From: a virus
Taxonomy: Duplodnaviria; Heunggongvirae; Uroviricota; Caudoviricetes
Strand: one strand, 5' to 3'
Virus record (IMG/VR): IMGVR_UViG_3300044445_000054
Length of the DNA stretch: 64,000 nucleotides
Made by a program: the position numbers and the translations under genes. The notes below the pieces were generated by a model. It saw only the letters and a list, made by a program, of their open reading frames with translations, had not been told where the DNA came from and made no database searches. Shown piece by piece: positions 355 through 54,974 of this stretch (the first letter of the stretch is position 1; every line of letters starts with the position of its first letter).

Positions 355-1017
355 TTACTTGGCCTTGCCGATCAGCTTGAAGCCGACGACGCCCCACTCG
401 TTGTTGTTCTTGTTGCGCTGCGGCAGGCATTCGATCTCGACCTCGACCTCGTCGAGGGCGAAGCCCTTCTCGCGCACGTCCTGATAGAACGCGTTCCAGA
501 ACTTCACGCCGGTGATCGCCGGAGTGATGCCAAGGCGCTGGCCCTTCTTCGCGCCGGGGACGTCTTCGCCCAGCAGGAAGGGCACTTCGACCGTACGGTA
601 CGGACCGTCGACCTTGGTGTTGTTGGCCTGCAGACGCGCCGTCGCCTGCTGGAAGTTCTCGCCCTGCGAGGTCTTCAGGCCGTCATACGACTTGATGAAG
701 GTCGTATTGCCACCCGTGTTGGCACGGACCGACATGATGACGGCCACTTCCTTCATGTTGATGCGGCCCTTGGCCTTCTGGAAGTACGGGTTGGTGTCGA
801 TGCGGAGGCCCGCATCCTTCACCGAAAGGTACGCATCGACGACCATGCCGGAACTGTCGGCGAGATCATCAAGGGTCAGGGCGGCGGGTGCCGTGGTCTG
901 CGTGAGGGCCGTACCGGCGACCTGCGTCGAAGGCAGGTTCGAGGTGGCGTCCGCAGCTGCGGCGGCCTGGTCCATCACGGAGTCGAGAGCAGAGGTCATG
1001 TAAAAGTTCCAGTTCAT
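355..1017 (-). CDS. hypothetical early protein (220 aa), possibly a nucleic-acid-binding protein
   Basis: Complete ORF with protein-like composition, directly upstream of and co-oriented with the exonuclease gene. An operator-type palindrome lies in its 5' region. No motif I can name with confidence. Confidence 0.5.
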   Translation of the reverse strand: MNWNFYMTSALDSVMDQAAAAADATSNLPSTQVAGTALTQTTAPAALTLDDLADSSGMVVDAYLSVKDAGLRIDTNPYFQKAKGRINMKEVAVIMSVRANTGGNTTFIKSYDGLKTSQGENFQQATARLQANNTKVDGPYRTVEVPFLLGEDVPGAKKGQRLGITPAITGVKFWNAFYQDVREKGFALDEVEVEIECLPQRNKNNNEWGVVGFKLIGKAK

Positions 1018-1093
1018 TATCGGTTGCGTTGAAACCCCGAGGGGTGAGGCCCTTCTACAGGCCGGATCAGATCATGCAAATCTCCATTTAGAT

Positions 1094-1109
1094 ACTACAG
1101 TGTAAGATT
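1094..1109. promoter_or_regulatory. operator-type palindrome TACTACAGTGTAAGATT (TTYTAC-AGN-GTARAA family), approximate coordinates
   Basis: ATACTACAG|TGTAAGAT, flanked by CTCCA...TGGAG. Same core as the elements at 2.1, 34.2, 40.2 and 48.6 kb. Lies in the 5' region of the 355..1017 gene. Confidence 0.4.
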
Positions 1110-1115
1110 GGAGTG

Positions 1116-1440
1116 GCCCGTTTTTGTGATCGGTGGGCCAAGCCGCCGGTGGGTCAGGCTGCGAGAGCCATGACCTCCGAGGAGTCGTTGTCGTTGGCGT
1201 TTATTCTACACCGCAAGGAAGCTCGATCCTAGTTCGCCCCCCAACAGAGCAAGCGGGCAGTTCGAGGAGAGTTTTGCACCATGCCCGCCGGGAGTCGAAC
1301 CCGTTTCGGTTGGGGTCACGATCCCCGCTGCACTCTCTGGCCGACCGTTGGCCTTTGCTGACCGCTTGCTCTGGTGGAGGCGGCGGGTACCGCCCCCGCG
1401 TCACTCCCAGCAGTCCGGCCTTGCGACCGGACGCCTGATC
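1116..1440 (-). ncRNA. ssrA: tmRNA-like gene (permuted two-piece type), boundaries approximate
   Basis: Minus-sense 1198->1154 reads GCCAACGACAACGACTCCTCGGAGGTCATGGCTCTCGCAGCCTGA = ANDNDSSEVMALAA*, a tmRNA-tag-like peptide. Upstream at about 1241 is GGGGGGCGAACUAGGAUCGAGC, resembling a tmRNA 5' end. Further upstream, at about 1399->1372, is GCGGG-GGCGGUA-CCCGC-CGCCUCC-ACCA: a T-arm-like stem, an acceptor 3' strand and an encoded ACCA. CGCCUCC pairs with GGGGGCG, giving G3-U70. Between the two pieces is an internal anticodon arm (anticodon CGU) plus a canonical GGUUCGACUCC T-arm. Confidence 0.5.
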
Positions 1441-2107: not shown

Positions 2108-2114
2108 CAGCTTT

Positions 2115-2166
2115 CCTCTTATATATTTTTATGACTCTCATTTTTACTCTGTAGAAATGAGAGTTA
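2115..2166 (-). promoter_or_regulatory. conserved AT-rich promoter/operator element, copy 1; near-identical inverted copy at 48566..48617
   Basis: cctcttatatatttttatgactctcatttttactctgtagaaatgagagtta. This is an AT-rich island in a GC-rich genome, containing the imperfect palindrome CATTTTTAC-TCTG-TAGAAATG. In minus orientation it reads hairpin, then TCATAAAAATATATAAGAGGAAAG, then the ATG of 1730..2107. Confidence 0.5.
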
Positions 2167-2173
2167 GAAGATA

Positions 2174-3859
2174 CTAGGAGGTGAAGTCCAGCACCGGCCG
2201 GGTATGATCGACGGCGTTGGCCAGTGCGCTCTTTTCCTTCACGATCTCGTACATCCGGTCGTCGATCGAGTCCTCGTACTTGAAGAAGATGACGAACAGC
2301 GTCTTGGTGCGCGAACCGCGGCTCGCGCGCCGGTACGCCTGCAGGATGTTGACGTCCATGAAGTCGATCGACGCGAAGATGACGAGGTCGAACATCTCCC
2401 AGTTGTACCCGACCGCGGTGGTCGGACCGGATGCGACGATCACGTCCAGCTCGCCGCGCTGCGCCGCCTCGTCAATGCGGATGCGCTCGGCACCCGACAC
2501 GTTGGCGTTGATGAGCGCGACCCGCAGGTCCAGCGACTCGGCGAGCCGCTTGATGCGCTCCTGCTCGGGCTGGAGCGAGGCGAAGATGAGCGTTTTCTTG
2601 CCGCCCGACAGGTGGACCATCAGCCGCTCGTCCTTCTCCGTCCACTCCGGCATGTCCGCCAGCATGGTCTCGGGATGCGCCATGATCTGACGGGCGCGCA
2701 TCTGCGCCACGCCTGTCATGCTGCCGTCGAGGATGCGCCCGTCGGCCAGCTCCAGCAACGCGTTGTCGTGGAACTCGTCGTAGGCGGCGCGCACCTTCTC
2801 GTGCATCTCGATCGTCTCGGCGGCGAACACCACGTCCTCTTTGCCGTAGACCTCCTCGAAGGTGCGGCGGATGGAGTGCTTGGCGAGGATCGCCGTCAGC
2901 TTGGCGTGGTTCTTCCACCGGATCGGGCGGCCATAGTCGTCCATCGCAAGGACGTGCTCGAACACGAAGCCCTGACGATTGCCGTAATAGCGCGGCTCGA
3001 TGACGTGGACGGCCGGGAAGGCCGTATCCAGCCGCCCGTTGATGAGCGTGCCCGTCATGCCGACGAAGCGGTGGACGCGGCGGTTGACCTCGAAGAACGA
3101 GGCCGTCAGCTTGGAGTCCAGTCCGCCGTACGCCATGTGCAGCTCGTCGACGAGCAGCAGGTCGATATCGGGGAAGGCGGCGAGCACGCGCTCCCAGTGC
3201 GCCGACATGAAAGCGAACGTGCAGATGACAGCCTTGACGCCGTCGGCCGCCGCGGACGCGATCAGGTCTTTGAACAGCTCGGGGTCGTTGCGGGTGGCCT
3301 TCTGCGCAAGCCCGTCAGGGCCACAGACAGGCTCAACAGCCAGCCAACCCTCGGGGATGGCCTCGTACTGCCCCTTGCCGTTCAGCGTGGCCCAGTGGCC
3401 GTCCTCGTGACGATAGCAGAACTTGAGCGGGCCGAGGCCGCGGGCCTTCGCCGCGTCCGCCAGCTCGAATGTCGTGGTCTCGGTCGTCGTACCCGGCAGG
3501 CGCACGCGGTAGCCGCTGCGCTTGCGGTCGGCGGCGATCGTCGGCCCCGTCCAGTTCGCCGTCAGCGCGGCGCGGTCGGTGCGCAGGATCGCCACGTCGT
3601 CGCCGGGCGTGTACTTCTTGTCGTTCGACACCTTGAACTCGGTAAACCGGACCAATTCCCGGAGGTTCTTCTTCAGCAGCGACTTGGGCATCGACCACAG
3701 GGTCTTCTTCTGCCCACGTGCCCACATCATGTACGAGTAGACGCAGCAGGGCGGGGTCTTGCCGGTGCCTGGATCCGAAAGGTCGAGGCACTTGGGGTTC
3801 TTGATATAGAACGCCAATTGCTGAATCTGTTTTTCCCGCAGCTGTGGAATGTCAGTCAC
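2174..3859 (-). CDS. SNF2/DEAD-like superfamily-2 DNA helicase
   Basis: Walker A DPGTGKT, DELH box (LLLVDELHMAYGG), C-terminal helicase domain. GTG start preceded by AGGGAGA. Confidence 0.85.
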   Translation of the reverse strand: MTDIPQLREKQIQQLAFYIKNPKCLDLSDPGTGKTPPCCVYSYMMWARGQKKTLWSMPKSLLKKNLRELVRFTEFKVSNDKKYTPGDDVAILRTDRAALTANWTGPTIAADRKRSGYRVRLPGTTTETTTFELADAAKARGLGPLKFCYRHEDGHWATLNGKGQYEAIPEGWLAVEPVCGPDGLAQKATRNDPELFKDLIASAAADGVKAVICTFAFMSAHWERVLAAFPDIDLLLVDELHMAYGGLDSKLTASFFEVNRRVHRFVGMTGTLINGRLDTAFPAVHVIEPRYYGNRQGFVFEHVLAMDDYGRPIRWKNHAKLTAILAKHSIRRTFEEVYGKEDVVFAAETIEMHEKVRAAYDEFHDNALLELADGRILDGSMTGVAQMRARQIMAHPETMLADMPEWTEKDERLMVHLSGGKKTLIFASLQPEQERIKRLAESLDLRVALINANVSGAERIRIDEAAQRGELDVIVASGPTTAVGYNWEMFDLVIFASIDFMDVNILQAYRRASRGSRTKTLFVIFFKYEDSIDDRMYEIVKEKSALANAVDHTRPVLDFTS

Positions 3860-4131: not shown

Positions 4132-5010
4132 TCAGGGTCGGCCTAGCGTGGACAACATCGGAAAGTTGTCTCGCATCCGCCGTTCGTTCTCCTCGATATG
4201 CTCGTGCATCATCCGAGCTACCATCGGGACTTCGTCGTGATGGACTGTCACCTTGAAGTTGTCCGTCGAGTTCGGGTGAGGCTTGACGATCGAGAGCGCC
4301 AGCTCCTTGGCTATGCGTTCGGCCAGCCGCTTCGGGTAGACAAACTCGCCGCCCCGCTTGCGCAGTAGCTCGCTCAGATCGGTGGCTTCCAAAGGCTTGC
4401 GTGTCATCAGCGTTATTGGGCCACCCACGTTCATCGTCCGAGATGTGCCATGATCGAACACCAGCGGCTGACCCGGCGTCGTCGCCCTGCTCCCAAGGTT
4501 CAGTTTCCAAGACGGGTACTTCTCCTTGAGGCGCGACCACCGTTCCAAGGAACGGACGAACTCGCTGTCGTTCACGACAGGCACGAGCCGGAAGACCTGC
4601 GCCCGCTTGTCGAGGTGGTAGTCCCGCGTGCGCAGGATGCGCTTGCCGTCGAACTCGATCTGGCAAATGCCGAAGTCGAACTCCTTGAGCGCATACGGCA
4701 TCACGATGATGTTGATCGGCGGACAGCCGGGGAACTTGGTCTCCAGCGACATCGAAATACGCTCGCCGTTGTAGGTCTTGTCGCTGACCACGTCGATGTC
4801 CTGCCAGCCGTCGGCAGCCATCGCCCTCCGAACACGGCGACCGTGCTCGACGTCAGTCGACTCGCACGGCACGAAGATGTCGATGTCCTTGACCTTCACG
4901 CCCTGCTCCCGGTCGCGGAGACAGCCACCGGCCATCACCGCATCGGGGTAGAGCACCTGCACCGAGGCGAGCGCGCTGCGCCACGCCTTCGGGATGTCCG
5001 CGACTTCCAT
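4132..5010 (-). CDS. CCA-adding enzyme / poly(A) polymerase-family nucleotidyltransferase (head domain)
   Basis: AGGCLRDREQGVKVKDIDIFVP matches the GGxVRD...DxDh signature of the tRNA nucleotidyltransferase family. AAGGGG SD. Confidence 0.6.
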   Translation of the reverse strand: MEVADIPKAWRSALASVQVLYPDAVMAGGCLRDREQGVKVKDIDIFVPCESTDVEHGRRVRRAMAADGWQDIDVVSDKTYNGERISMSLETKFPGCPPINIIVMPYALKEFDFGICQIEFDGKRILRTRDYHLDKRAQVFRLVPVVNDSEFVRSLERWSRLKEKYPSWKLNLGSRATTPGQPLVFDHGTSRTMNVGGPITLMTRKPLEATDLSELLRKRGGEFVYPKRLAERIAKELALSIVKPHPNSTDNFKVTVHHDEVPMVARMMHEHIEENERRMRDNFPMLSTLGRP

Positions 5011-5030: not shown

Positions 5031-5696
5031 TTATCGAGCGATTGATGCGACGCCCGCAAGACCCGGTACTGGACCGAGTCCATCCGGCTGACGATCGAGG
5101 CCGGGAGCGGCGGGCGGGGCGGCGGTGCTGGGGCGGGTGTCATCGGCTTTCTCCAATCGGTGCTGAACGAGCTGGCCCTGACCCCATGCGAGGGAAGCCA
5201 GCGCGCGGTCATATAGGCGACGGTCGCCCTTGTTCATGACCTCCAAGACCAACTCCTTCTCGCGCAGGTAGGTCCGTGCGAAGCCGGGGTCGTTGGCCGC
5301 AATCGACGACGTGTTGTCGATCAAGTCGGCCAGCTTGATGTCCTGCGCCTGCGCGCTGATCGTCGCCAGCCGCTCGCGCTCCAGCTGCTTGCGCGCCGCC
5401 CGGTTGCCCTGCGAGGGCAGGACGAACTGGTCGGTCAGGTCGAAGACCATCGCGGCCACCGCGCTGCCGAAGCGGCGCTCGATCGTCTCGATCGAGACAG
5501 GCGTGTCTTCGACCACGTCGTGGAGGACGGCGGCGACCAGCTGGTCTTCGGTCACGATCGAGGCCGTTTCGTGGAGGATCGTCATCACCCGCAGCGGGTG
5601 AACGATGTAGGGCAGGCCGTCATACTTGCGCACCTGCCCGCCGTGCGCCACCGCGGCGAACGCGATGGCTTGGTCCAGTTGTTTCCAGCTCGTCAC
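5031..5696 (-). CDS. HD-domain (p)ppGpp hydrolase-like protein (SpoT/small-alarmone-hydrolase type)
   Basis: AHGGQVRKYDGLPYIVHPLRVMTILHE...AAVLHDVVEDT is nearly the SpoT N-terminal HD consensus. GTG start in GTGA overlap with the upstream gene, GAGGAGA SD. The N-terminal 156 codons of the track ORF are rejected as upstream read-through. Confidence 0.65.
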   Translation of the reverse strand: MTSWKQLDQAIAFAAVAHGGQVRKYDGLPYIVHPLRVMTILHETASIVTEDQLVAAVLHDVVEDTPVSIETIERRFGSAVAAMVFDLTDQFVLPSQGNRAARKQLERERLATISAQAQDIKLADLIDNTSSIAANDPGFARTYLREKELVLEVMNKGDRRLYDRALASLAWGQGQLVQHRLEKADDTRPSTAAPPAAPGLDRQPDGLGPVPGLAGVASIAR

Positions 5697-6076
5697 AGTT
5701 CGGTCTCCTCGTATTGCAGGCCGTTCAGCACCTTGACAGGCACCTCGAACTCGACCTGCGTCGACGTGCCGCCGCGGTTCTTCGGCATGAGATCGCGGCG
5801 CGGACTGGCGAAGATCGTCAGCTTGATAGCATCCATCTTGGCCTGCGACGACAGATGGTAGCGCTTGAACTCGATGACCGTGCCCTCTTCGAGAACGAAC
5901 TCGGTCATCCGTTCCGCCGCCTTGTAGTCCCATACCACACCGGGATTGTTGATGCGCCACGCCGCGTCGCGGACGTTGGTGTTGCCGTAAGCGTTCACGC
6001 AGTCGGCGATCACGATCTTCCACGAAGCGAGCAGGCGCAGCTTCGATTTGAGCGGCGGGATGTAGAGCTGGGTCAT
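5693..6076 (-). CDS. hypothetical protein (127 aa)
   Basis: Protein-like composition. ATGA overlap with the upstream gene, GTGA overlap with the downstream gene. Confidence 0.55.
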   Translation of the reverse strand: MTQLYIPPLKSKLRLLASWKIVIADCVNAYGNTNVRDAAWRINNPGVVWDYKAAERMTEFVLEEGTVIEFKRYHLSSQAKMDAIKLTIFASPRRDLMPKNRGGTSTQVEFEVPVKVLNGLQYEETEL

Positions 6077-6360
6077 TCCATTCCCTCCACCAGCGAAACA
6101 TCAGCGCACCGCAACACGAAGTTCGAGACGGTGCGGTGATGACCGTACGCCGCCGTGCCGCCATACTTCTTCATGGTCAGCTCCGGCGTCTCGCCCATCA
6201 GGATGGTGACCTGCACGGCCTCGTCGTCGGTCGCCGCTTGGTTGACCCGCGTCTTGTCGACGCGGAACACCGTGCCCTTCTGCATGCTCTGGCCGTAGCG
6301 GCAGTCGATGTCCTGCTCGGCGCGGAAGCGGTCACGGCGGTTGGGGATCAACAGTTTCAT
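6073..6360 (-). CDS. hypothetical protein (95 aa)
   Basis: Internal ATG (MKLLIPNRRDR) gives ATGA coupling with the upstream gene's stop. Confidence 0.45.
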   Translation of the reverse strand: MKLLIPNRRDRFRAEQDIDCRYGQSMQKGTVFRVDKTRVNQAATDDEAVQVTILMGETPELTMKKYGGTAAYGHHRTVSNFVLRCADVSLVEGME

Positions 6361-6908
6361 GGGCGCAGCTCCTGATAGCGGCGAATGAAGTTCGCCTTGG
6401 CCTGTCGGGGCGTCCACGACGTCAGGTCGACGCCGGGCATGTCCTTGAGGTGTTCATATTCGATGCCGTCGAGCACCGCCCACTTCTCTTTCAGCTCCTT
6501 GACGTACGTCGCCTCAAGCCCGAGCATCTGGGCGTCGGCGAGCTTGACCTCGGGGGCGAGCGGGTAGGTGAAGCCGAACCGGCGCGACATGGCCGACTCG
6601 ATCTTCACTTCCAGTTCCTTGAAGATCGGCAGCGCCGTCTTCAGGGGCGTCGGCAGGTCGTTGGTGAATGCCTCGGCCGTGTCGTGCATCAGCGCATCGA
6701 AAGCAAACGCCGGTGACACAATGTACGAGCAGTTCACGACGTGCTGTGCCACCGAATAGAACCTCGGCAGATGGCCGGCGAAGCGGCAGATGTTCGACAG
6801 CGGTGTGGCGATGTCGTCGATCGTCAGCGGGCATTCGTCAGGGTTGAGGTAGTCGAAATACGACCCGCTCAACATAGAAATGCCTGCGGTCAACGGAATA
6901 GCGTTCAT
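6357..6908 (-). CDS. HD-domain phosphohydrolase (YfbR-like 5'-deoxynucleotidase type)
   Basis: RFAGHLPRFYSVAQHV...ALMHDTAEAFTNDLPTPLK fits the H...HD...D metal-binding pattern. Confidence 0.6.
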   Translation of the reverse strand: MNAIPLTAGISMLSGSYFDYLNPDECPLTIDDIATPLSNICRFAGHLPRFYSVAQHVVNCSYIVSPAFAFDALMHDTAEAFTNDLPTPLKTALPIFKELEVKIESAMSRRFGFTYPLAPEVKLADAQMLGLEATYVKELKEKWAVLDGIEYEHLKDMPGVDLTSWTPRQAKANFIRRYQELRP

Positions 6909-7537
6909 GCCTGTTGCTCCTTGCGTGCTTGGTTCTCAGCCCACTTGCCCTGCTCGTCGTAGTCGAACGTTTTCTTGAACAGCGTGCCCGACGGGCCGTG
7001 GCGCATCACGATGCCCTCGGGGTCCATGAAGCCGGGCGCAAAGCGCGAGCCGTTGGCCTTGAGGTCGTCCATGATCCGCGCGAACTCCGCGCCCGGCTCG
7101 CCCATGTAGCCCTCCGCCAGCACCGGCACGACAGTAACGCGGTCCGGCAGGTCAGCACCTGTCCAGCGCGCCGTGTTGAACAGCGCGAACCGCTTATCTG
7201 GCAGGCCGTACTGGCGCTTGTTGATGCCCTTGCCGACCCACTCACCGTAGTGACGGCCCTCGCCGAGCATGGCGATGAGAGCCTTTTGGCTTTGATGCAC
7301 GAACTGAGCGAAGCCCGCGTTGTCCTTGTCCAAGGACAGCAGGTTGTTCCGGGACTGCGCGAAGATGCCGAGGCCACTCTCGCGGTCGTAGCCAAGGCGA
7401 TGTCGCTGCTGTTCTTCAGTGCCACGCTCGGTTGTCGGCGCGATCAACACGCAGGCGTTGGTGCCGTCGAGCTTCTCGGTGATCGCCCAGCCGTGGCTGA
7501 ACCGGGTGAGGCTTGCGAACTTCTCGAACATAATCAT
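6905..7537 (-). CDS. RNA ligase (Rnl2-like nucleotidyltransferase domain, PF09414-type)
   Basis: WAITEKLDGTNACVL matches motif I KxDGTN of Rnl2-type ligases. ~210 aa, typical of phage stand-alone RNA-ligase domains. ATG preceded by GGAGAA. Confidence 0.55.
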   Translation of the reverse strand: MIMFEKFASLTRFSHGWAITEKLDGTNACVLIAPTTERGTEEQQRHRLGYDRESGLGIFAQSRNNLLSLDKDNAGFAQFVHQSQKALIAMLGEGRHYGEWVGKGINKRQYGLPDKRFALFNTARWTGADLPDRVTVVPVLAEGYMGEPGAEFARIMDDLKANGSRFAPGFMDPEGIVMRHGPSGTLFKKTFDYDEQGKWAENQARKEQQA

Positions 7538-7578
7538 TCTCCATTGGAAGGTGGGCCGCCCGAAGGCGGCCCGGTAGG

Positions 7579-7884
7579 TCAGCTGGCGAACAGGAGCGCC
7601 GCGATGACGAGGATCACGGCGATGCTGCCGATGACCCACATCTTGAGCTTGCGGTTCGGCTCGAAGTCGCCCTCGCTCAGGTCGAAGATTTGGTACCAGA
7701 CGTAGTCGCTGGGGATCATCGACTGGCTCGGGTTGTCGTTGCTCAACACGCCGACGAACGGCTTGCCCGAAGGATTGAGGCTGAACCCGGTGCCGACATT
7801 GTCGTCGGCGTAGGCGGTGTAGACGAAAGGCTCGGTCGGCTCGGGAGTGAAGCCACCGGGACGGTCAACAGGGGTATCACGCAT
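7579..7884 (-). CDS. small membrane protein (C-terminal TM helix)
   Basis: MRDTPVDRPGG...KMWVIGSIAVILVIAALLFAS. GGAGAA SD. Confidence 0.45.
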   Translation of the reverse strand: MRDTPVDRPGGFTPEPTEPFVYTAYADDNVGTGFSLNPSGKPFVGVLSNDNPSQSMIPSDYVWYQIFDLSEGDFEPNRKLKMWVIGSIAVILVIAALLFAS

Positions 7885-11762: not shown

Positions 11763-11957
11763 CTAAAGGATGGGAGTGAAGATGTACGCACCGTGTTCGA
11801 TGCGATGCGCGCCGCCGAGGCGACCCGCTTTCTTGAGATTGAAGCACCGCTTGCGCAGCTTGTCGTCGCGCCACCGCAGCGTCACCCTGAAGTAACCCTG
11901 ATGCTTGGCGATCGCGACGATCTGATCGGCTGTGAGGCCCGAGCCTCGGTTGGTCAT
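11763..11957 (-). CDS. small hypothetical protein (64 aa)
   Basis: MTNRGSGLTADQIVAIAKHQGYFRVTLRWRDDKLRKRCFNLKK... ATGA overlap with the NTase gene stop. Confidence 0.4.
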   Translation of the reverse strand: MTNRGSGLTADQIVAIAKHQGYFRVTLRWRDDKLRKRCFNLKKAGRLGGAHRIEHGAYIFTPIL

Positions 11958-12928
11958 CTGATCTGCTCCATATACAGGGCCAGCACCGTGCGGTCGGCCA
12001 GCTTGTGATCGGACTTCTCGGGCAGGATGCTGTCTTCCGACGCGCGACCGACGGCGGCGACCAGTTCCTCCAGCTCGGCGGACACGTCGCTGTACGGGTA
12101 CATGCCCTGCTTGATGCCGAGCAGGTAGGCGGCGTCGGGCCGCGGGAACGTGATGTGCCCGGTCTCCAGCAGCTCGATCGCCTGCCCCGCCACGCGCACG
12201 GCGTGGCTCACGGCTTTCCAGTCGATGCCGTCGTTGTCCTTGGCCTTGCGGGCACGCTCGCCGTAGTTCTCCCAGACCTTGGTCCAGATTTTCTCGGCCT
12301 CTTCGATCGAGATCGTCATCGGCACCTTGCGGTCGCAGACATTCAGGTGCCAGCAGCTCTTGCCGCCGGGGTGCGGGATGTCCTCCCACATGACGTGCTC
12401 ACGACCGGCCGACCAGTCGTGCAGCTTGGCCTCGATCGCCGACATCTTGGCCGTGCGGGTCAGGCCCAGCTTGGCGATCGCGAGGAAGTCAAGCACGCCT
12501 CGCACCGCACCCATGCGCGAACCCTTGATGCCGTACTTCGCCGCCTGCCGGACGCAGTAGCCGACGAAGCCCTTGCACTGGCGGTTGAGCAGCTGCTTGC
12601 CGATGTTGCGGACATTCAACCACTCGGCGCTCGGGTAGTCGACGGGAGCGAACAGGATTTCGGTGGCGACGGTGTCGCCCTTCATCAGCATCTCGAAGAA
12701 CTTGGCGACGCTAAACGACTCGTCGTCGATCGCGTCCGCGGTGTTCTTGTCGGTGCCCTCCGCCTTGGACACGACGTTGCGGTTGATGTGGTTCTCGGGG
12801 CGGCCGAGCACGATCGCCTCACCGGACGGCAAGTGCACGCCCTTGAAGTCCTGATCGGACTGCGGTGTCGAGGTGCCGTACAGGTGCGAGCCGTGGCGGA
12901 TGCGGACGAGTTGACGGACGGGTTTCAT
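11954..12928 (-). CDS. Pol-beta-superfamily nucleotidyltransferase (MNT/ANT-like motif), function unknown
   Basis: RHGSHLYGTSTPQSDQDFKGV fits GSx9-11DxD. 325 aa with a C-terminal helical domain. GGAGAA SD before MKPV. Confidence 0.5.
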   Translation of the reverse strand: MKPVRQLVRIRHGSHLYGTSTPQSDQDFKGVHLPSGEAIVLGRPENHINRNVVSKAEGTDKNTADAIDDESFSVAKFFEMLMKGDTVATEILFAPVDYPSAEWLNVRNIGKQLLNRQCKGFVGYCVRQAAKYGIKGSRMGAVRGVLDFLAIAKLGLTRTAKMSAIEAKLHDWSAGREHVMWEDIPHPGGKSCWHLNVCDRKVPMTISIEEAEKIWTKVWENYGERARKAKDNDGIDWKAVSHAVRVAGQAIELLETGHITFPRPDAAYLLGIKQGMYPYSDVSAELEELVAAVGRASEDSILPEKSDHKLADRTVLALYMEQIR

Positions 12929-12995
12929 GTGGTGTTCTCCAATAGGCATGAAGAAGGGGCCGAGCGGCCCCTTCAACATCAACAATGTGCTGGAC

Positions 12996-13238
12996 TTACT
13001 TGTCGTGGACCTTGACCACGACGGCGTCCTTCGGGGCACCTTCCTTGTCGAGGCCATCGCTGATGATCTCGACCTTGGTGCCGCGCTTGATGCCTTCGAG
13101 GCCGTCCTTGATCGTCGCCTGGATGTGGCGACCGTCGTGCAGTTCGAGAAACGCGTAGCCGTCGTTGGCATCCGTCACGCGGAACACCTTCTGCGCCTCG
13201 GCAGGCTTCGAGGTCGTCGGGGTGGGGGCATCTGCCAT
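12996..13238 (-). CDS. small hypothetical protein (80 aa)
   Basis: MADAPTPTTSKPAEAQKVFRVTDANDGYAFLELHDGRHIQATIKDG... GGAGAG SD. Confidence 0.45.
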   Translation of the reverse strand: MADAPTPTTSKPAEAQKVFRVTDANDGYAFLELHDGRHIQATIKDGLEGIKRGTKVEIISDGLDKEGAPKDAVVVKVHDK

Positions 13239-24170: not shown

Positions 24171-24187
24171 GATATTACCCCGTAGTT

Positions 24188-24784: not shown

Positions 24785-25192
24785 TTACCCGTCCAGCGCG
24801 GCAAGCTCGGCGCGCAGCGCCTCCGGCGACTTCGACCCCAGCTCGCGACGCTCGGCCGCGGCGATCGCGTCGAGCAGCACCTCGCGCTGCTGGCGCTTGT
24901 TGACGAGTTCACGCTCACGGGCGTTGGCGGCCTCGCGGTCGGCGATCACGAACTTCACCAGTTCGAGCTTCTCGTTCAGCTCGGTGCGCGCCGGGTCGGT
25001 CGACGCGGTGGTCACGAACGAGCGGGTGCCCGCCTTGTCCAGCTCGTCGGCGATGCCGATTGCGACGTCGTTCAGGTTCGCCTTGCTGACGCTGGTCAGC
25101 GGCAGGCCGAAGAGCTGCTCGGTGGTGAGCAGCCCCTGCGGCGAGTTGAAGCGGAAGCGCTTGCGCGCGGCGATTTCGAAGAGATTGGGCAT
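24785..25192 (-). CDS. hypothetical protein (135 aa)
   Basis: Protein-like composition. Confidence 0.45.
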   Translation of the reverse strand: MPNLFEIAARKRFRFNSPQGLLTTEQLFGLPLTSVSKANLNDVAIGIADELDKAGTRSFVTTASTDPARTELNEKLELVKFVIADREAANARERELVNKRQQREVLLDAIAAAERRELGSKSPEALRAELAALDG

Positions 25193-27156
25193 CAGAACTG
25201 TACCTCGTATGTGCGGCCATCGGCGATCGCAATCACCTTGTCACCGCGGGTGGAAGAGAAACCGACGCCGGACAGCTGGCTGTCAGACGGCGGGCACTTG
25301 GTCTTGGAGGACAACACCTCGAAGACCTTCCGGTGCGGGTCGAGCGACCCACGCAGGAACTCGTTGACGAAGCCACGGGTGGCGTCGGGGTTCTTACAGC
25401 CTTCCAGCATAAAGAACCAGTGCTTGTTGCCGACATCGCCCGCACCCTCCCAGAAGTTGGGCGAGGTCATGATCGTGTCGACGCGGACCGGGGTCAGCGT
25501 CTTGACGCCCCACTTCTCGGTCGAGACCGAGCGGTTGGTCATGCCAGTGCCGTGCTTGATGCCCGCCAGCTGGCCGTTGGCGATCGTGAGCGTGATCGAC
25601 ACATTCTCGCCGGTTCGCATGCCCTTGGGGTAGGACAGCTCGTGCAGCGCGCCCTGCACCTCGATCTCCAGCCGGAAGCCTTCATTCTCGCTGTAACGGC
25701 GGCTGTACTGGTTGACGGTGAACTTGTATTCGCCGTCGCGGGGCATGACCTTCCACGCCATGTTCTCGACCGGGTTGGTGCGGTTGGTGGCCGCGCCAGC
25801 GTTCATGTCGACGTCGAGGATGCCACGCTTCTCGTAGAAGGCAATGTGCTGACGATCGGGCGTGTCGCAGTGCAGATCGAGGTCATCGCCGTTGAACCAG
25901 CCGAGGCTGACCCGCATGGCACCGTCGACCCGTCCGCCTGCCGCCTTGACGCGCTCCTTCATGCCGGTGTCCGCCAGCTCGCCGTCGTACATCCAAGCGA
26001 AGCCGTTGCTCCACTTGAACAGCTGGCCGCCGTCATCATAGACGGGCGCGGTCAGCGACACGAAGTTGCTCTGCTGGCTGTTGGCGATGACCAGCTCGAC
26101 CGACTTCTTGGGCAGCGCCATGAAGGCCTCGATCGAGATCGGCGTCGCGTCCTTGGACACGGTCGCGGCCTTGACCTTGGTCGACCCCATGAGCAGGTCG
26201 GCAAGGCCGCCCTTCATCTTGCCGCGCACCTCGTTGTCGACGAACAGCACGTCGTTGACGCTCACGTCCTCGATTGTGGCGTAGCGGCGGTCGACCGCAT
26301 GCTCCAGACCCAGCTCGGCGAGCTTGGCGACGGCCTGCTCGATCATCTTGGGGGTGATGAGCGCGGTCGGACGCTTATAGTTCTCCGGCGCGACCTTCGC
26401 CTCGAACTTCTTGACGGCCTGCTCCAGCTCGGTGCCATCGGCGAGGTCGGTCAGCAGCGTGCCGATGACCGTGTTGCGGAAGCGGGCGTTGCGGTTGTCG
26501 AGGTTGGCCCAGATGAAGGCGTTGCGGTCATCGGCGGACAGGTAGTCGCGCTGGAGATCGCGGAAGCCCTTGATCGACGCGACGTGTTCCGCGCCGCGGT
26601 ACAGCGCCTTGGCCTCGATCAGGTCGAGGACCGTCTCGAAGTCGCCGACGTTCAGCTCTTCCAGACCGCGGCGCAGCACCTGCGCGGTGGTGTTGATGTC
26701 GCCGCGTGCCTTGTCGGGCGTGGCGGACAGGTGGCGGGTCGCGACCTTGCCGAGGAAGTGCTCCCAGCGGATCGTGGTGTCGTGGTTGTCCCAGTTCGGC
26801 GCGCTGCCGAAGCTGCGCTCCTTGGTGCGGAACACCGAGACGATCGGAGCCTGCAACACGACATCGTTCAGGCGGCGGGCGACCTCGTTGTACGGGTAGG
26901 GCATGTCGTCCATGCCGGTCCACACCGACTCGCGGTGGCCGTCGTCGTAGATCGCGACCACGTTGCCGAGACGCCGAATGAAGTTCTTGTCGGCGTTACA
27001 GTCGTGGACGGTGCGGACCCGGTAGATCGGGTCGGTGCCTTCGGGGAAGGCGGCGAGATAGCTGGCGAACAGGTCTTCGACGTCGACCACGAACAGTTCG
27101 CGCTTGGCGAGGTTGTCGTACTTGGCGGCGACGGCGGCTGCGAAGGTCTTAAACAT
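25192..27156 (-). CDS. large hypothetical protein (654 aa)
   Basis: Long ORF with excellent composition. No motif I can name. Confidence 0.65.
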   Translation of the reverse strand: MFKTFAAAVAAKYDNLAKRELFVVDVEDLFASYLAAFPEGTDPIYRVRTVHDCNADKNFIRRLGNVVAIYDDGHRESVWTGMDDMPYPYNEVARRLNDVVLQAPIVSVFRTKERSFGSAPNWDNHDTTIRWEHFLGKVATRHLSATPDKARGDINTTAQVLRRGLEELNVGDFETVLDLIEAKALYRGAEHVASIKGFRDLQRDYLSADDRNAFIWANLDNRNARFRNTVIGTLLTDLADGTELEQAVKKFEAKVAPENYKRPTALITPKMIEQAVAKLAELGLEHAVDRRYATIEDVSVNDVLFVDNEVRGKMKGGLADLLMGSTKVKAATVSKDATPISIEAFMALPKKSVELVIANSQQSNFVSLTAPVYDDGGQLFKWSNGFAWMYDGELADTGMKERVKAAGGRVDGAMRVSLGWFNGDDLDLHCDTPDRQHIAFYEKRGILDVDMNAGAATNRTNPVENMAWKVMPRDGEYKFTVNQYSRRYSENEGFRLEIEVQGALHELSYPKGMRTGENVSITLTIANGQLAGIKHGTGMTNRSVSTEKWGVKTLTPVRVDTIMTSPNFWEGAGDVGNKHWFFMLEGCKNPDATRGFVNEFLRGSLDPHRKVFEVLSSKTKCPPSDSQLSGVGFSSTRGDKVIAIADGRTYEVQF

Positions 27157-31415: not shown

Positions 31416-32255
31416 TTATTGGGGAATAGTGACGCAGGGCGTATCGCTGTTGCAGTACACAGTGTTGGGCAGCTTGCCGTCCCACTTGCGCATGTATTCG
31501 GACTGGTAGCCCGGATTTTGGGCGACGACCGCGTTGCGCAGGCGAGTTGCCTCGGCTTGGCCGCGCGCCTTCTCGATCTGGGCATCGGCAGCGGCCTTGG
31601 CCTCGGCCACCTGTGCCTGTCCCTCGGCCTCGGCGGTCAGCACGCGGGCCTTGGCTGCGATCGCGGCCTGCTCGGTCTGGGCACGGGCGTTGATGCGCTC
31701 GGTGATCGCCTCGGGGATGCGGATCGGGCCAGCCCAATCGAGCTGCTCGATGATGAGGCCACGCGGCGCGAAGTAGGCGGCGACCTTGCGCTGGGCCTGC
31801 TGGATTAGCGCGGCCTTGCGCTTGCCGTAGATGTCCTCGACCGACATGGTGGAGGCGACCGACACGATCGCGGCCTTGACGCGGTCACGCACCGGGCCGG
31901 ACACGATGGTGTCCATCTCGCCACGGTACGTCTGGAACAGGATCGGGGCCTTGTTCGGGTCGGCGCGGTAGGCGACGTTGACGTCGGCCGACACGATCAG
32001 GCCGTTCACGTCTTGGAACGTGATCGACTCGTCACGCTCTTCCGACTTCTGCCACGAATAGCGGTTCGTGTAGGTCGGGTAGGAGTAGATGTCGGAGCCG
32101 AACTGGAACCAGTAAGTGCCCACGCCCAGCGGCTTGGCCTGCACGCCTGCGCTGGAGCCGTAGTTGTTGACCTTGACGCCGATGTTGCCCGACGAAATGC
32201 GGTCGCAGGCCGCGAGCGATAGGCCAGCGATGAGGATGGCGAGGAGTTTCTTCAC
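31416..32255 (-). CDS. SPFH/band-7 family lipoprotein
   Basis: GTG start with AAGGAAAT SD. Lipobox signal VKKLLAILIAGLSLAAC. SPFH core followed by an Ala/Glu/Gln-rich coiled coil, AEAEGQAQVAEAKAAADAQIEKARGQAEA. Confidence 0.65.
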   Translation of the reverse strand: MKKLLAILIAGLSLAACDRISSGNIGVKVNNYGSSAGVQAKPLGVGTYWFQFGSDIYSYPTYTNRYSWQKSEERDESITFQDVNGLIVSADVNVAYRADPNKAPILFQTYRGEMDTIVSGPVRDRVKAAIVSVASTMSVEDIYGKRKAALIQQAQRKVAAYFAPRGLIIEQLDWAGPIRIPEAITERINARAQTEQAAIAAKARVLTAEAEGQAQVAEAKAAADAQIEKARGQAEATRLRNAVVAQNPGYQSEYMRKWDGKLPNTVYCNSDTPCVTIPQ

Positions 32256-32434
32256 GGGATTTCCTTCTTCACGAATGTGTAGAGAGCGTGTGAGCCGTAG
32301 AGCGTCGCAGCCGCGATGAGCAGCGCGAGGACCAAGGCACCGTCGTTCTGGAGGTTGACGAGACCGGGGATGACCACCCGGACGATCAGGATGATCGCAA
32401 CCAGCCACGCGAGGAAGATGTAGAAGCGAGTCAT
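32252..32434 (-). CDS. small membrane protein (60 aa, 2 TM) coupled to the SPFH gene
   Basis: MTRFYIFLAWLVAIILIVRVVIPG...LVLALLIAAATLYG. GTGA overlap. Confidence 0.4.
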   Translation of the reverse strand: MTRFYIFLAWLVAIILIVRVVIPGLVNLQNDGALVLALLIAAATLYGSHALYTFVKKEIP

Positions 32435-32646
32435 TCTGATCTCCGGTGTGGGTAGGGCAAGTGGGCGGATTAGGCCCGAGGTCATGATTGCCTCCTGTGT
32501 TGTGCCCGCCAATTCTGGTGGTACGGGCGCACCGAATGCTTATGCAGCTAGGGCGGGTCTTACACCTTGCGGATGCCCAGTTCTATATGTTGTCGGCAGA
32601 GAGTACAGGGTAGTTTGCTACGTGTCGGGAATTGGCCCGGTCTGGG

Positions 32647-34084: not shown

Positions 34085-34221
34085 GCCACGATCGTCCAGA
34101 AGCTGCCGCGACGCTCACGAGGGGTCAGGGCCAGCCACTGTGCGCGGCGGATGTGATAATTCGAGTGCGTCATGGTTCTTCTCCGATGGAGGCGAGCGGG
34201 TTCGCTCTATGTTCTCTTTCC

Positions 34222-34338
34222 AACTCTCATTTTTACAGTGTAGTCTCTATATAATTTTTTTATGACTGCTTCTTAAAAGATATAGAAAAAGAAAATAAAA
34301 GAGAAGGGACTACACTGTAAAAATGGGAGTTATGACTG
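34222..34338 (-). promoter_or_regulatory. AT-rich conserved element, copy 2: two inverted half-sites, CATTTTTACAGTGTAG (34228..34243) and CTACACTGTAAAAATG (34310..34325), around a 66-bp AT-rich core
   Basis: Same TTYTAC-AGN-GTAR core as the other copies. The core contains TCATAAAAAAATTATATAGAGA in minus sense. Lies between the HTH gene and the downstream small-gene operon. Confidence 0.5.
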
Positions 34339-34353
34339 CCCTTAGAATGGACC

Positions 34354-34821
34354 TCACCCGACCGCGAGAAGCGCGGTATTCCGCCATTTCTGGCGCAGGT
34401 CACGCCTGCCGGTGCACATCACGACCACCTGATCGCGGGTCAAACCGAGCGCTTTGGCGATCTTGGGCTGGCTCATGCCCGCATCCCGCATATCGAGCAC
34501 CGCGAGCCGCACAATCGGTGGCACCCAGCCCTGCTTCCAGCCGCCGTCCTGCATGGCGCGAAGCACGGCCAAACCATCCTCGCGGGTCGGTTCGGCCACG
34601 TTCTGTTCCACCATCGCCTGAACGTGGCCGAAGCCCTTGAGGTGGTCGCGCAGCCGCTCGTAATGGCGCTTCGCGTTGGGCACCCATCCAAAGACGTGGC
34701 GCGCGGCGGGCCAACCGATGGTCTCCACGAACGCGACCAACTCGCAGGCGTCGGCGTAGTCCAGGCGGGTGACGGGAATATACTTCGCCACCCTCCTGAA
34801 CTTCTGGGAGCTATACCGCAT
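34354..34821 (-). CDS. HTH-domain protein (possible transcription regulator or sigma-region-4-like; start uncertain, 34821/34857/34875)
   Basis: C-terminal HTH MSQPKIAKALGLTRDQVVVM. Immediately upstream of AT-rich element copy 2. Confidence 0.45.
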   Translation of the reverse strand: MRYSSQKFRRVAKYIPVTRLDYADACELVAFVETIGWPAARHVFGWVPNAKRHYERLRDHLKGFGHVQAMVEQNVAEPTREDGLAVLRAMQDGGWKQGWVPPIVRLAVLDMRDAGMSQPKIAKALGLTRDQVVVMCTGRRDLRQKWRNTALLAVG

Positions 34822-35041
34822 CTCCGCGGGCAAAAGGGCGTCCATCGTGTACCGCATAGAGCACGACCCTACCATCGTCCTCCTCGTGCGGGTAGGTGTT
34901 AAACCACGCATCCGCATAGGCCTGGCGGGCCTTGGCGTTCCGCAACTCGCGAGCCGCGGGCGTCTTGTCGCGGATGGAGAACGCGACCCCGATGCACAGG
35001 GCGATGACTCCGAGCACGCCCAGCACGTACAGCGCGCCCAT
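34811..35041 (-). CDS. small membrane protein (76 aa)
   Basis: N-terminal TM segment VLGVLGVIALCIGVAFSI. Confidence 0.35.
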   Translation of the reverse strand: MGALYVLGVLGVIALCIGVAFSIRDKTPAARELRNAKARQAYADAWFNTYPHEEDDGRVVLYAVHDGRPFARGDAV

Positions 35042-36529: not shown

Positions 36530-36568
36530 GGTAGGTTCCTTTGGTTATGCCCGCTTGGGCGAAAGTGA

Positions 36569-36582
36569 CTTAAACATTTAAG
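36569..36582. promoter_or_regulatory. palindromic box CTTAAACATTTAAG (copy 4, same palindrome)
   Basis: About 40 nt upstream of the ATG at 36529. Confidence 0.45.
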
Positions 36583-36967
36583 GCCACACCGGCCTTATGC
36601 ACCAGACACACCCCTCCCGTCACCAGAAGCAGGGCTTCATGGTGTCGCTTGGTGGCCGCCGGGGCCGATGTGCTCAAAGCACGTCCTTTACTTAGAAGGA
36701 TATATAGGCGGGTATAGGTGGGGGTGCTGGGCCAGGTGGCTATCCATGCCCTAATCACCCCTAACCCCTTAGGGTAACACGCTTTTTTCTTCTAAAAATC
36801 GCACTCCCAATGCAATCATACCCCCACCGGTCGCATTATATTTTTCACGATTTCCGAGATATATAACTGGAATTGAGCCAAACCTGACGCATAATCGAGG
36901 ATTATGACCGCCAATGCGTCAAATCCGGGGTGTAAATCACGATTACACCCCGGATTTGACCCAAAAC
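36583..36967. other. 385-bp non-coding, lower-GC region adjacent to the primase-helicase gene (candidate replication origin / regulatory region)
   Basis: No credible ORF. AT-rich stretches (tatatatttttcacgatttccgagatatataactgg). Short inverted repeats (TGACGCAT...ATGCGTCA). A perfect 18-bp inverted repeat at 36918..36960. Confidence 0.4.
36918..36960. repeat. perfect 18-bp inverted repeat GTCAAATCCGGGGTGTAA-atcacga-TTACACCCCGGATTTGAC
   Basis: Lies 8 nt past the primase-helicase stop. No U tract on either strand. Confidence 0.6.
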
Positions 36968-39439: not shown

Positions 39440-39646
39440 TTATGCTCCGAGGAGAGGGTTCTGAGGCGGAAAGTCATCGTCATCGGCCGGACCGATGCCG
39501 GATTTCACGCAGACTGCCGCGCCGACGAGCCACAGGAAGCCCAAGACGGGCTGGCCGTGGCGGGCCGCGGCGATGCCGAGGACCGCGAGGATCGCGGCGG
39601 CGATGATGTTCCCTATGCCGATCGCATAGGTGTTCGGGATTTTCAT
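39440..39646 (-). CDS. small membrane protein (68 aa)
   Basis: MKIPNTYAIGIGNIIAAAILAVLGIAAARHGQPVLGFLWLVGAAVCV. GGAGCC SD. ATGA coupling. Confidence 0.4.
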   Translation of the reverse strand: MKIPNTYAIGIGNIIAAAILAVLGIAAARHGQPVLGFLWLVGAAVCVKSGIGPADDDDFPPQNPLLGA

Positions 39647-40140
39647 CGGTAAGGCTCCAGTCTTTTCATGAATTGTTCGCGGTCGGCCTCCGACACGAGG
39701 TCGTCCAAAATCTTGATGACCTGCTCCTGAAACTCGCCCATCTTCTGCACCGTGGTGTGGCGCTCGGCGAGTTTCAGCATGCGCTCCAGCTGGTCGCCCT
39801 TGGTTTTCAGGAGGGCGAGCTTCTCGCGCACATCCATGCCATCTGTGGCGTCCAGATCGTTGAGGCTCTTGATCGTGGCCCGGATTTCGTCCAGAACCAG
39901 CTGTTCGTCCTCCGCGGACAGGCGAATGTCCTTGGTCGGGCGGCCTCGTCCGTTCTTGGACTCGACCTGCACCTCCTTTTCGACGATCTTCTCGATCACC
40001 TTGGGCGCGAGCAGCTCGGCCAGCGCCAGCTTGGTCTCGTCGTCGTACGGACAATCGGGGTTTTCGAGGGTATCGAGCTGGCTTTTCAGCCCGATCAGGC
40101 CGGTCAGGACGGCCAAGCGGAGGGGAGGGAAGTTGCTCAT
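39643..40140 (-). CDS. hypothetical protein (165 aa); first gene of the minus-strand arm
   Basis: Good composition, acidic and helical. Confidence 0.55.
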   Translation of the reverse strand: MSNFPPLRLAVLTGLIGLKSQLDTLENPDCPYDDETKLALAELLAPKVIEKIVEKEVQVESKNGRGRPTKDIRLSAEDEQLVLDEIRATIKSLNDLDATDGMDVREKLALLKTKGDQLERMLKLAERHTTVQKMGEFQEQVIKILDDLVSEADREQFMKRLEPYR

Positions 40141-40182
40141 GGGCCTGTCCTACCCGGATCGCCCGTACGCGCAACGCCTATT

Positions 40183-40210
40183 CCCGTTTCTACAGGGTAA
40201 GAAACTCGGG
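40183..40210. promoter_or_regulatory. operator-type palindrome CCCGTTTCTAC-AGG-GTAAGAAACTCGGG in the divergent control region between the minus and plus arms
   Basis: Same TTYTAC-AGN-GTARAA core. Sits between the start of 39643..40140 (-) and the start of 40279.. (+). Confidence 0.5.
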
Positions 40211-40278
40211 CTGGTTGCCTCATAACCGCTTTATTTTGGGCTGGGTCGGAGATACCCCGCCACTCTCAAGGAGCACCT

Positions 40279-44232: not shown

Positions 44233-44244
44233 GAGGATAAAGAC

Positions 44245-45219: not shown

Positions 45220-45245
45220 CGGTTGCCCCACAACCATTTGATCTT

Positions 45246-48558: not shown

Positions 48559-48565
48559 TATTCTA

Positions 48566-48617
48566 TAACTCTCATTTCTACAGAGTAAAAATGAGAGTCA
48601 TAAAAATATATAAGAGG
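48566..48617 (+). promoter_or_regulatory. conserved AT-rich promoter/operator element, copy 3 (inverted near-identical copy of 2115..2166)
   Basis: taactctcatttctacagagtaaaaatgagagtcataaaaatatataagagg. Followed by AAGAGGAAG and, about 55 nt later, the ATG of the scaffold gene. Confidence 0.5.
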
Positions 48618-48674
48618 AAGTGGTTGAGCCAGAACCTGTTGATCTGACCGACCGCAGCGGCATAGGGCGAGAAT

Positions 48675-54671: not shown

Positions 54672-54879
54672 CGGTCACTTCCCGCTTGATGAGCCGCGCG
54701 ACCGCGGCGTCGAGACTAACATGCTCACCCATGCCAAGTCGAAGAAGTTGATTAACCTTGCCGTTGACGTGCATGCCGTCAGCGTGGGCCATATCTCCGA
54801 GCTTTGCATAGATGGACTCAGGAACGCGCACGGTAAAACTCCGGTGCGGTTCTTTGGGTGTGGAAGGCGCTTTCGACAT
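54661..54879 (-). CDS. ribbon-helix-helix (CopG/Arc-type) DNA-binding protein
   Basis: MSKAPSTPKEPHRSFTVRVPESIYAKLGDMA. GGAGA SD. Confidence 0.5.
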   Translation of the reverse strand: MSKAPSTPKEPHRSFTVRVPESIYAKLGDMAHADGMHVNGKVNQLLRLGMGEHVSLDAAVARLIKREVTDVL

Positions 54880-54974
54880 AAATCTCCGGTGGTGACGGGC
54901 GGTTGGCATTTTCTCTATTGAGCCAAAGCAGAAACAAGGCAAGAGGCAATCTGAGTTTGAAAAGGAGCGCCTCG

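Follow-up and report, generated by a model that had tools for sequence, protein, structure and literature searches.

A family of TAC-N3-GTA dyad elements at gene-block boundaries in the genome of a Seuss-related siphophage

Results

Gene organization and the two full cassettes

The DNA analyzed here (hereafter the window) is a 64-kb stretch of the genome of an uncultured, lytic tailed phage, a siphophage related to Caulobacter phage Seuss. The minus-strand genes between 1730 and 40140 include those for a helicase, a class II ribonucleotide reductase, a DNA ligase, rIIA/rIIB and a primase-helicase, while the plus-strand genes from 40279 onwards include those for a 1317-aa protein, the large terminase, the portal and the major head protein. 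A search at the DNA level returned no close phage record. By terminase, the nearest cultured relatives are Seuss (44% identity) and Achromobacter phage JWF (38%), siphophages of ~80–85 kb that carry direct terminal repeats. Phages of this type (~80 kb, with terminal repeats) are frequently met in metagenomes of soil and freshwater; their hosts belong to the Alpha- and Betaproteobacteria. To place the window among its relatives, more than 20 related metagenomic loci (59–90% protein identity) were retrieved with the portal, helicase and primase proteins.

Two full copies of a composite element, here called cassettes, lie on opposite strands, 46 kb apart:

2113–2176, minus strand: cassette A, identical to cassette D over 54 nt; the position is occupied also in the related contigs L017–L020 and L022
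48556–48619, plus strand: cassette D; a cassette lies at this position in nine related contigs and is missing from L008

Both lie 6–10 nt after a stop codon and just before a Shine-Dalgarno (SD) sequence. In cassette A the helicase stop codon (2174–2176) is followed by a dyad or hairpin (arms 2134–2164, core TAC-AGA-GTA on the minus strand), an A/T-rich box (CATAAAAATATATAAGAGG, 2115–2133), GAGG and the ATG (2107) of a 125-aa gene. Cassette D consists of the portal stop codon (48556–48558), the dyad or hairpin (48564–48602) and the AT box (48599–48617), after which come a conserved leader and an ATG at 48675. The original prediction had described, for both copies, the order hairpin, box, SD-like purines and first gene; this is what we find in A, but in D the start codon at 48675 lies 55 nt past the SD-like purines. 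It had also reported two nearly identical inverted copies of ~52 bp. Indeed, positions 2113–2166 (minus strand) and 48566–48619 (plus strand) match exactly over 54 nt, and with their flanks (2113–2176 and 48556–48619) the two cassettes share 95% identity over 64 nt. The T/C alternative which had been placed between the copies is actually a single C·A mismatch between the two arms of each hairpin.

In A, as in L017, L018 and L022, the AT box abuts the SD sequence and hence is not a standard −10 element for the next gene. Taken as a −10, the box fits D, L019 and L020; in A, L017, L018 and L022 the transcription start would fall downstream of the SD.

The split pair and the remaining sites

A third arrangement, in which the two arms of the dyad are set apart by an AT-rich core, is found next to a gene for a small helix-turn-helix (HTH) protein:

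34222–34248, plus strand: site B1, the left arm, best match to the weight matrix (score 25.7)
34249–34304, no strand: B core, AT-rich, ~25% GC between the two TAC-N3-GTA cores
34305–34331, minus strand: site B2, the right arm, reading in the sense direction of the leftward genes, which start at 34173
34354–34851, minus strand: HTH gene, encoding a 165-aa helical protein with a C-terminal helix-turn-helix, the candidate binder

The split pair had been predicted, and its 27-nt arms (34222–34248 and 34305–34331) prove to be 93% complementary and 56 nt apart. B1 is oriented away from the downstream genes and faces none. The B core carries a further copy of the AT box, CATAAAAAAATTATATAGAG, on the minus strand.

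The other sites are partial:

40180–40210, plus strand: site C, imperfect palindrome with the core TAC-AGG-GTA at 40191–40199
1082–1117, minus strand: site E, degenerate dyad with its core at 1096–1104, below the weight-matrix threshold
32570–32640, minus strand: candidate site G, core TAC-CCT-GTA at 32604–32612 with a downstream CATATAGAA box
24176–24184, minus strand: weak candidate site F, the core alone (TAC-GGG-GTA) in a 17-nt intergenic gap, which may be due to chance

Site C, which contains the compact palindrome described earlier at 40183–40210, occupies the 139-nt divergent region between a leftward gene (39643–40140) and the rightward late operon that starts at 40279. Its layout (CGCGCAA, motif, GGTTG-palindrome) is kept in eight relatives. 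Candidate site G had been overlooked. It lies in a 238-nt gap upstream of an SPFH/Band-7 gene (31416–32408, minus strand) which is absent from the fetched relatives, and its flavour, TAC-CCT-GTACTCT, matches that of other genomes rather than that of the window, as if the gene had brought its own cassette.

Site E is located 49 bases downstream of a tmRNA gene and upstream of the minus-strand gene 355–1017. A site at 1.1 kb had been predicted and is present (1096–1104); its description as lying upstream of the first gene is wrong for the plus strand. The tmRNA gene (1154–1420, minus strand), itself downstream of cassette A, is of the permuted, two-piece alpha-proteobacterial type and is found also in relatives, where L018 has a tRNA at this place as well. 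Equivalents of site E lie 3′ of the tmRNA or a tRNA in L018, L019 and L020, with a degenerate one in L017. Directly after site E (1017–1090, minus strand), L017–L020 share the stretch GGAGGTTTGC-ATGATCCTC..CTGTAG-AAGGGCC, possibly a mini-ORF of 6 codons or a hairpin; in the window it has a frameshift. At the putative start codon of gene 355–1017, which is ATG in the window, several relatives read ACG.

Near the tmRNA gene, the minus strand also carries a group of genes of RNA-repair type (6905–7639, 11954–13171, 5031–6164 and 4132–5010), whose members are an RNA ligase, an RlaP-like pol-beta nucleotidyltransferase, an HD_4 phosphohydrolase and a second nucleotidyltransferase. Their clustering beside the tmRNA gene suggests a module countering host attack on tRNA or mRNA.

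Sequence and specificity of the motif

The motif consensus was derived from 23–29 sites aligned on the core. It is asymmetric and ~20 nt long: a T-rich tract comes first, then C/T positions, an A, three positions of A or T, one T, and finally the invariant TAC-N3-GTA. In the left arm, conservation extends to the sequence and is not confined to pairing; the loop varies, as do the bases immediately ahead of the putative start. In A, D, the B core and candidate site G, the motif is followed by a second box whose A/T-rich sequence is particular to each genome. The YAwwwT stretch just upstream of TAC is weak (A in 19 and T in 22 of the 29 sites); hypothetically, it could act as a −10, transcription then starting from the G of GTA. 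No conservation was seen among the aligned sites at any fixed distance 3′ of the motif.

Within the window the motif is far more frequent than in shuffled sequence. The extended form ACTCYCATTTYTACAGNGTA matches seven times at ≤3 mismatches (0.00 expected) and a 15-mer of the motif eight times (0.11 expected), while 11 occurrences of the 9-nt core TAC-N3-GTA (TACNNNGTA) compare with 1.7 expected; for CTACAGNGTA the figures are 4 and 0.04. The palindromic family proposed in the original prediction is thus real at all three levels, extended motif, 15-mer and core. With a weight matrix built from the relatives only, B1, B2, D and A are the top matches in the window, whereas C, E and G score at or below random maxima and owe their membership to position alone. 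In total, the 64 kb hold two full copies and four or five partial sites. The elements had been called the only AT-rich islands of the window; A, B and D are such islands, but a fourth, at 36831–36885, has no motif, and C and E are not AT-rich islands.

A similar density of the motif in unrelated genomes had been named as an observation that would speak against a phage-specific role. When 596 Gb of prokaryotic genomes were scanned with the 19-nt motif, 45 single matches were obtained, never two per stretch and mostly in AT-rich taxa. This is chance level, and the single, never paired matches indicate that the motif is not a general feature of genomes. A host regulon motif was considered as well and rejected, given that scans of the 596 Gb of genomes and of metagenome contigs gave only such single chance-level matches. 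A scan of viral contigs with the exact window version of the motif found zero matches.

Conservation of position and concerted evolution

Elements occupy the same places in the relatives. A cassette lies directly 3′ of the portal stop codon in nine related contigs and directly 3′ of the helicase stop codon in six; the inverted pair 3′ of the HTH gene is present in seven genomes, the element of the divergent early/late region in eight relatives, and the one 3′ of the tmRNA or tRNA in four. The exception is L008, whose portal gene is not followed by a cassette. Within a given genome, the copies after the helicase and portal genes are nearly identical (54 of 54 nt in the window, ~55 nt in genome 1058), while the cassette sequences differ between genomes. 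As judged from these alignments, the family evolves in concert, being uniform within and different between genomes. Such uniformity, with the positions fixed, is the pattern expected of sites co-evolving with a phage-encoded binding factor.

At the split pair, it is the geometry that is kept: the core-to-core distance is 75–78 bp in seven genomes, though the sequence of the core diverges.

Dyad symmetry, folding, terminator and promoter analyses

The full cassettes keep a two-part dyad, with a 6-bp outer helix and a 3-bp core. Paired cells amount to 92.9%, compared with 85.8% in shuffles (0/500) and 41–62% in slid controls, and five pairs changed on both sides (2/500 shuffles). The folding energies are another matter. 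On the sense strand the hairpins of the window fold at −12.6 to −16.9 kcal/mol (z −2.7 to −3.2) and the B pair at −36 to −45 kcal/mol, but the consensus of 14 cassettes reaches only −1.25 kcal/mol, and the cassettes of L004, L006, L003 and L015 fold like shuffled sequence. The family is therefore defined by sequence and symmetry and not by a stable hairpin, the strong hairpins of the window being a local feature. A conserved dyad with compensatory changes, yet with a weak consensus fold, is more readily explained by a symmetric protein site than by a hairpin in RNA or DNA. For D, the antisense strand folds more stably than the sense strand (−24.0 vs −14.4 kcal/mol). All four arm mismatches in D (48564–48602) and B (34222–34331) are transitions, compatible with G·U pairing on the strand antisense to the genes; with n = 4 this is not significant.

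An intrinsic terminator scan of 33.5–49.5 kb gave terminator-like matches, none of them at B, C or D; A, which has the same sequence as D, and E lie beyond this range and were inspected by eye. All stems are rich in A/T, and none is followed by the T-run of an intrinsic terminator; since GC-rich stems and U-tracts are missing, none of the scanned sites was flagged as a terminator. Against Rfam, only the tmRNA scores above the gathering threshold in the whole window, and the matches at the sites themselves are sub-threshold and to generic eukaryotic miRNA hairpin models.

A scan for sigma-70 −35/−10 pairs found no sense-strand match at A, C or D; matches occur only in antisense at D and, weakly, at B2. 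Reading the relatives manually did not reveal consistent −35/−10 hexamers. The poor fit to sigma-70 promoters noted in the original prediction is thus borne out, as no convincing −35/−10 pair exists in sense orientation. The TTTACA within the motif was considered as a sigma-70 −35 and discarded, because no −10 partner is conserved across the relatives.

The split pair and the probable genome end

A likely link between the 34.2-kb pair and the genome terminus, absent from the original prediction, emerges from the comparison with Seuss and JWF. In Seuss, the 13-nt motif AATTCCATATACG forms an inverted pair around an AT-rich core of ~13% GC, the start of the annotated terminal repeat lies 9 nt beyond the left arm of this pair, and a third copy of AATTCCATATACG is found in the divergent region upstream of terL. 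In JWF, the inverted pair GGCGTGGTAGCG / CGCTACCACGCC flanks the start of the repeat. These inverted repeats, which flank the first base of the terminal repeat, are at the following positions:

Seuss, 1–100 of L001 and 33360–33490 of L016
JWF, 3480–3640 of L029

The gene order around B (primase, small genes, HTH gene, B) matches that of the Seuss repeat region. The Seuss pair bracketing the repeat start and this matching synteny together suggest that B probably marks a genome end or origin; by analogy, B would be the left boundary of a terminal repeat of ~2.5 kb, at about 34.3–36.85 kb. A literature search that included the Seuss genome announcement (PMC4591317) did not find the AATTCCATATACG repeats or the terminus inverted repeats described. 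Short contigs with the HTH gene were tried as evidence for the repeat boundary and set aside, as they end elsewhere than at B; in one related contig the end falls shortly before B, not within it, which is uninformative on the terminus.

Between the primase gene and the small-gene operon there is a 440-nt non-coding stretch (36530–36968) that contains the AT island at 36831–36885 and a box, CGAAAAA..GCGAAAAATATAATGCG, conserved in relatives. It probably serves as early promoter region and as the opposite boundary of the terminal repeat. The conserved box of this putative early-promoter island (36.8 kb) is a different one, which fits with the TAC-N3-GTA sites being a separate, factor-dependent class.

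Candidate binding protein and search for a phage polymerase

In each of the seven related genomes examined, the gene for the HTH protein directly precedes the B pair, and its product is therefore a reasonable candidate binder. The protein is more diverged (44–57% identity) than the portal (70–90%) and the primase (65–83%). A confident model of it shows an HTH that resembles the operator-binding KorB/ParB domains, with the KorB DNA-binding domain as the best fold match. The same protein had been put forward as binder in the original prediction; to judge from its constant position beside the split pair the proposal may well hold, the gene being taken here as 34354–34851. At the equivalent position of Seuss and JWF, no HTH protein is detectable. 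A second candidate regulator, the supposed RHH protein at 54661–54999, has no family match.

Neither an RNA polymerase nor a sigma factor was found in the window with Pfam and PHROGs, or in the Seuss annotation; ~19 kb of the genome lie outside the window. A conserved orphan (25192–27156, minus strand; 654 aa) belongs to DUF8224, which has >3000 homologues, some of them from assemblies of Ensifer and Mesorhizobium. The orphan has a confident AF2 model (pLDDT 86), which resembles no solved PDB structure and shows no polymerase-like fold. The idea that this orphan is a hidden phage polymerase thus received no support from a PDB fold match.

Discussion

The elements form one family, hold conserved positions, are symmetric and evolve in concert, and they come without the features by which the alternatives would be recognized. 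We infer from this that a protein binds to them, that the HTH protein is its probable identity, and that the sites have a promoter or operator role and a connection to the genome terminus. In the reading which we prefer, with a probability of roughly 0.5, they would be operator- or promoter-associated sites for one phage-encoded DNA-binding protein, located at the starts of transcription units. The palindromic sites lie at five or six gene-block boundaries and have a dyad with compensatory changes, which suits a palindromic operator of a ParB/KorB-type regulator, repeated at several control regions, and site C falls into a divergent gap where promoters must exist. On the other side stand the failure to find a convincing −35/−10 pair in sense orientation, the AT box abutting the SD in A, L017, L018 and L022, the low matrix scores of C, E and G, the missing conservation at a fixed distance 3′ of the motif, the orientation of B1, which faces no gene, and the post-portal junction of L008, which has no cassette. 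The original prediction had suggested an operator/promoter set of a phage regulator or polymerase. Phage-specific cis-elements at gene-block boundaries, upstream of the genes that follow, are what we find; as for the polymerase, none was detected.

According to this operator model, the sites would be bound by the HTH protein, whose gene lies just upstream of B and would be expressed early as part of the terminal-repeat operon. Cassettes A and D may then work like the cassettes of T4-type phages (see below), damping read-through from upstream and re-starting or boosting the next gene block, while site C would control the divergent early/late region and the B pair would bracket an AT-rich terminus or origin region, at the start of the terminal repeat by synteny with Seuss. 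A bolder version, which we hold to be unlikely as a whole, is that a single small HTH protein, from a narrow, unannotated family and the terminal-repeat operon, binds TAC-N3-GTA, redirects the host RNA polymerase to promoters devoid of a −35 and marks the genome end or origin, thus coupling the middle/late transcription switch to replication or packaging, which T7 achieves with a polymerase of its own, but without a phage polymerase.

The elements could instead act in the RNA only, as intercistronic hairpins of polycistronic mRNA that attenuate transcription, stabilize the transcript or direct its processing (RNase III/E type), with the A/U-rich box and the SD making a strong translation initiation site and neither promoter nor operator being involved. 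The location of A and D, 6–10 nt after a stop codon and just before the SD, the folding energies of the hairpins in the window and of the B pair, the four arm mismatches, all transitions, and the AT box abutting the SD in several copies would agree with this. Nevertheless, we think it rather unlikely: site C sits in a divergent region, without a co-directional gene upstream; the consensus hairpin reaches only −1.25 kcal/mol and several relatives fold like shuffles; there are no GC-rich stems or U-tracts, no flagged terminator and no Rfam match; the strand of the window that tolerates wobble pairs is antisense to the genes; and it is the sequence of the left arm which is conserved and not its pairing only. 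Acting on DNA, B with its AT core could be the recognition site of a terminase or initiator at the boundary of the terminal repeat, the other copies being secondary sites of the same protein. The Seuss pair around an AT-rich core, with the repeat starting 9 nt after its left arm and a copy upstream of terL, the JWF pair and the shared synteny all speak for this possibility, and the fixed 75–78 bp spacing around an AT-rich core resembles origin or unwinding elements. As an account of the whole family it is nonetheless doubtful, since A, D and E are gene-proximal, between co-directional genes and by ribosome-binding sites, where packaging or origin sites have no reason to be; for site B alone, it can coexist with the operator model.

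It is improbable that the elements are selfish or neutral repeats, MITE-like or recombination hot-spots, which spread by recombination and persist at module junctions without a regulatory role. Such repeats would account for 54-nt identical copies 46 kb apart, for the presence or absence of the cassette at the portal junction (L008), for the variable gene content beside A, B, C and G and for the foreign flavour of candidate G, but not for the occupation of the same five positions across relatives with 59–90% protein identity, for sequences that drift together, for the conserved dyad and B spacing or for the few copies per genome. We give even less credit to promoters for a phage-encoded RNA polymerase, be it T7-like or of the N4 type, which uses a hairpin with a 3-nt loop. 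A motif of ~20 nt that is genome-specific and directional, with a 3-nt loop in its palindromic copies, would suit such an enzyme, and in T7-type phages promoters are known to flank the terminal repeat. Nonetheless, neither the window, beyond which ~19 kb of the genome lie, nor the Seuss annotation revealed an RNA polymerase, the DUF8224 model has no polymerase fold, and the loop and pre-start positions are variable.

Repeated, genome-specific regulatory cassettes are well known in phages; what is new here is their occurrence in a GC-rich siphophage lineage, their unusual tie to the probable genome end and the fact that no phage polymerase was found. The closest known counterparts are the PeSL (promoter-early stem-loop) cassettes of T4-type phages, in which a stop codon, a stem-loop, an AT-rich promoter, an SD and a start codon follow each other (PMC2839356, PMC4122927) and for which promoter and terminator activity was measured (PMC2839356). 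PeSLs carry a sigma-70 promoter of consensus type, their terminator stems are stable and often rich in G/C, and dozens of copies exist in hyperplastic regions (PMC2839356, PMC4122927). Like them, A, D and their counterparts in the relatives sit between a stop codon and the next SD and start codon, combine a stem-loop with an AT-rich region, occur as near-identical copies within a genome, adjoin variable genes and can travel with modules. Unlike PeSLs, they have no sense-strand sigma-70 consensus, their stems are rich in A/T and in many cases weak, no more than two full copies exist, and the invariant TAC-N3-GTA is found also in the divergent control region and around the probable genome end. 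Composite cassettes resembling those of the T4 type thus occur in an unrelated GC-rich phage lineage, too.

The KorB operators of plasmid RK2 and the stoperators of Cluster A mycobacteriophages are multi-site operator networks of HTH regulators. The present family shares with them a short site repeated at several transcription-unit boundaries, a sequence that co-varies with the genome and a candidate HTH binder encoded nearby. In T7 and T3, phage promoters flank the terminal repeat and serve in packaging or replication (phiOL and phiOR, pacC), and the primary origin consists of promoters and an AT-rich region. The special arrangement of a transcription-linked motif at a terminal-repeat boundary, beside an AT-rich stretch, is common to these phages and the window; the T7-type promoters, however, are read by a phage polymerase, of which none was found here, and the terminus of the window phage is deduced from Seuss. 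With the AATTCCATATACG motif of Seuss, the similarity extends to an inverted pair around an AT-rich core downstream of small terminal-repeat genes, to a copy in the divergent pre-late region and to the left arm, AATT(T)CC..A..TAC. The Seuss motif differs in being shorter and without the N3-GTA half, and Seuss has no copies after the portal or helicase genes. A literature search found no papers on promoters in the Seuss/JWF phage group.

The motif family offers a testable map of control points, with five or six sites, a candidate regulator and a probable genome end, and can be used for annotating transcription units and termini in related metagenomic genomes.

A second repeat family in the late region

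Besides the TAC-N3-GTA elements, a second repeat, GGTTGnCCnnn(C)AACC(G/A)yTTGA, is found at the heads of three late cistrons and is conserved in relatives:

40213–40231, plus strand: GGTTG element GGTTGCCTCATAACCGCTT, immediately after site C
45221–45239, plus strand: GGTTG..CAACC element, directly upstream of terL
48622–48640, plus strand: GGTTG element GGTTGAGCCAGAACCTGTT, degenerate, immediately after cassette D

In L008 the GGTTG element directly overlaps the portal stop codon. It could function as a hairpin in the late leader, as an operator or as a short upstream ORF (M-x-x-N-R-L); the last of these was rejected, given that the frames are inconsistent and that in L014 the second codon is a stop.

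Between site C and terL (40279–45219, plus strand), the window has two genes, for a 1317-aa Calx-beta-like protein and a 324-aa tail-spike-like protein, and in the relatives terL follows directly after C. The two genes have the appearance of an insertion flanked on either side by a duplicated GGTTG element. The 5′ ~780 nt of the 1317-aa gene (40279–41058) are paralogous (78–82% nucleotide identity) to 54975–55751 on the plus strand, which belongs to a 306-aa gene (54903–55823).
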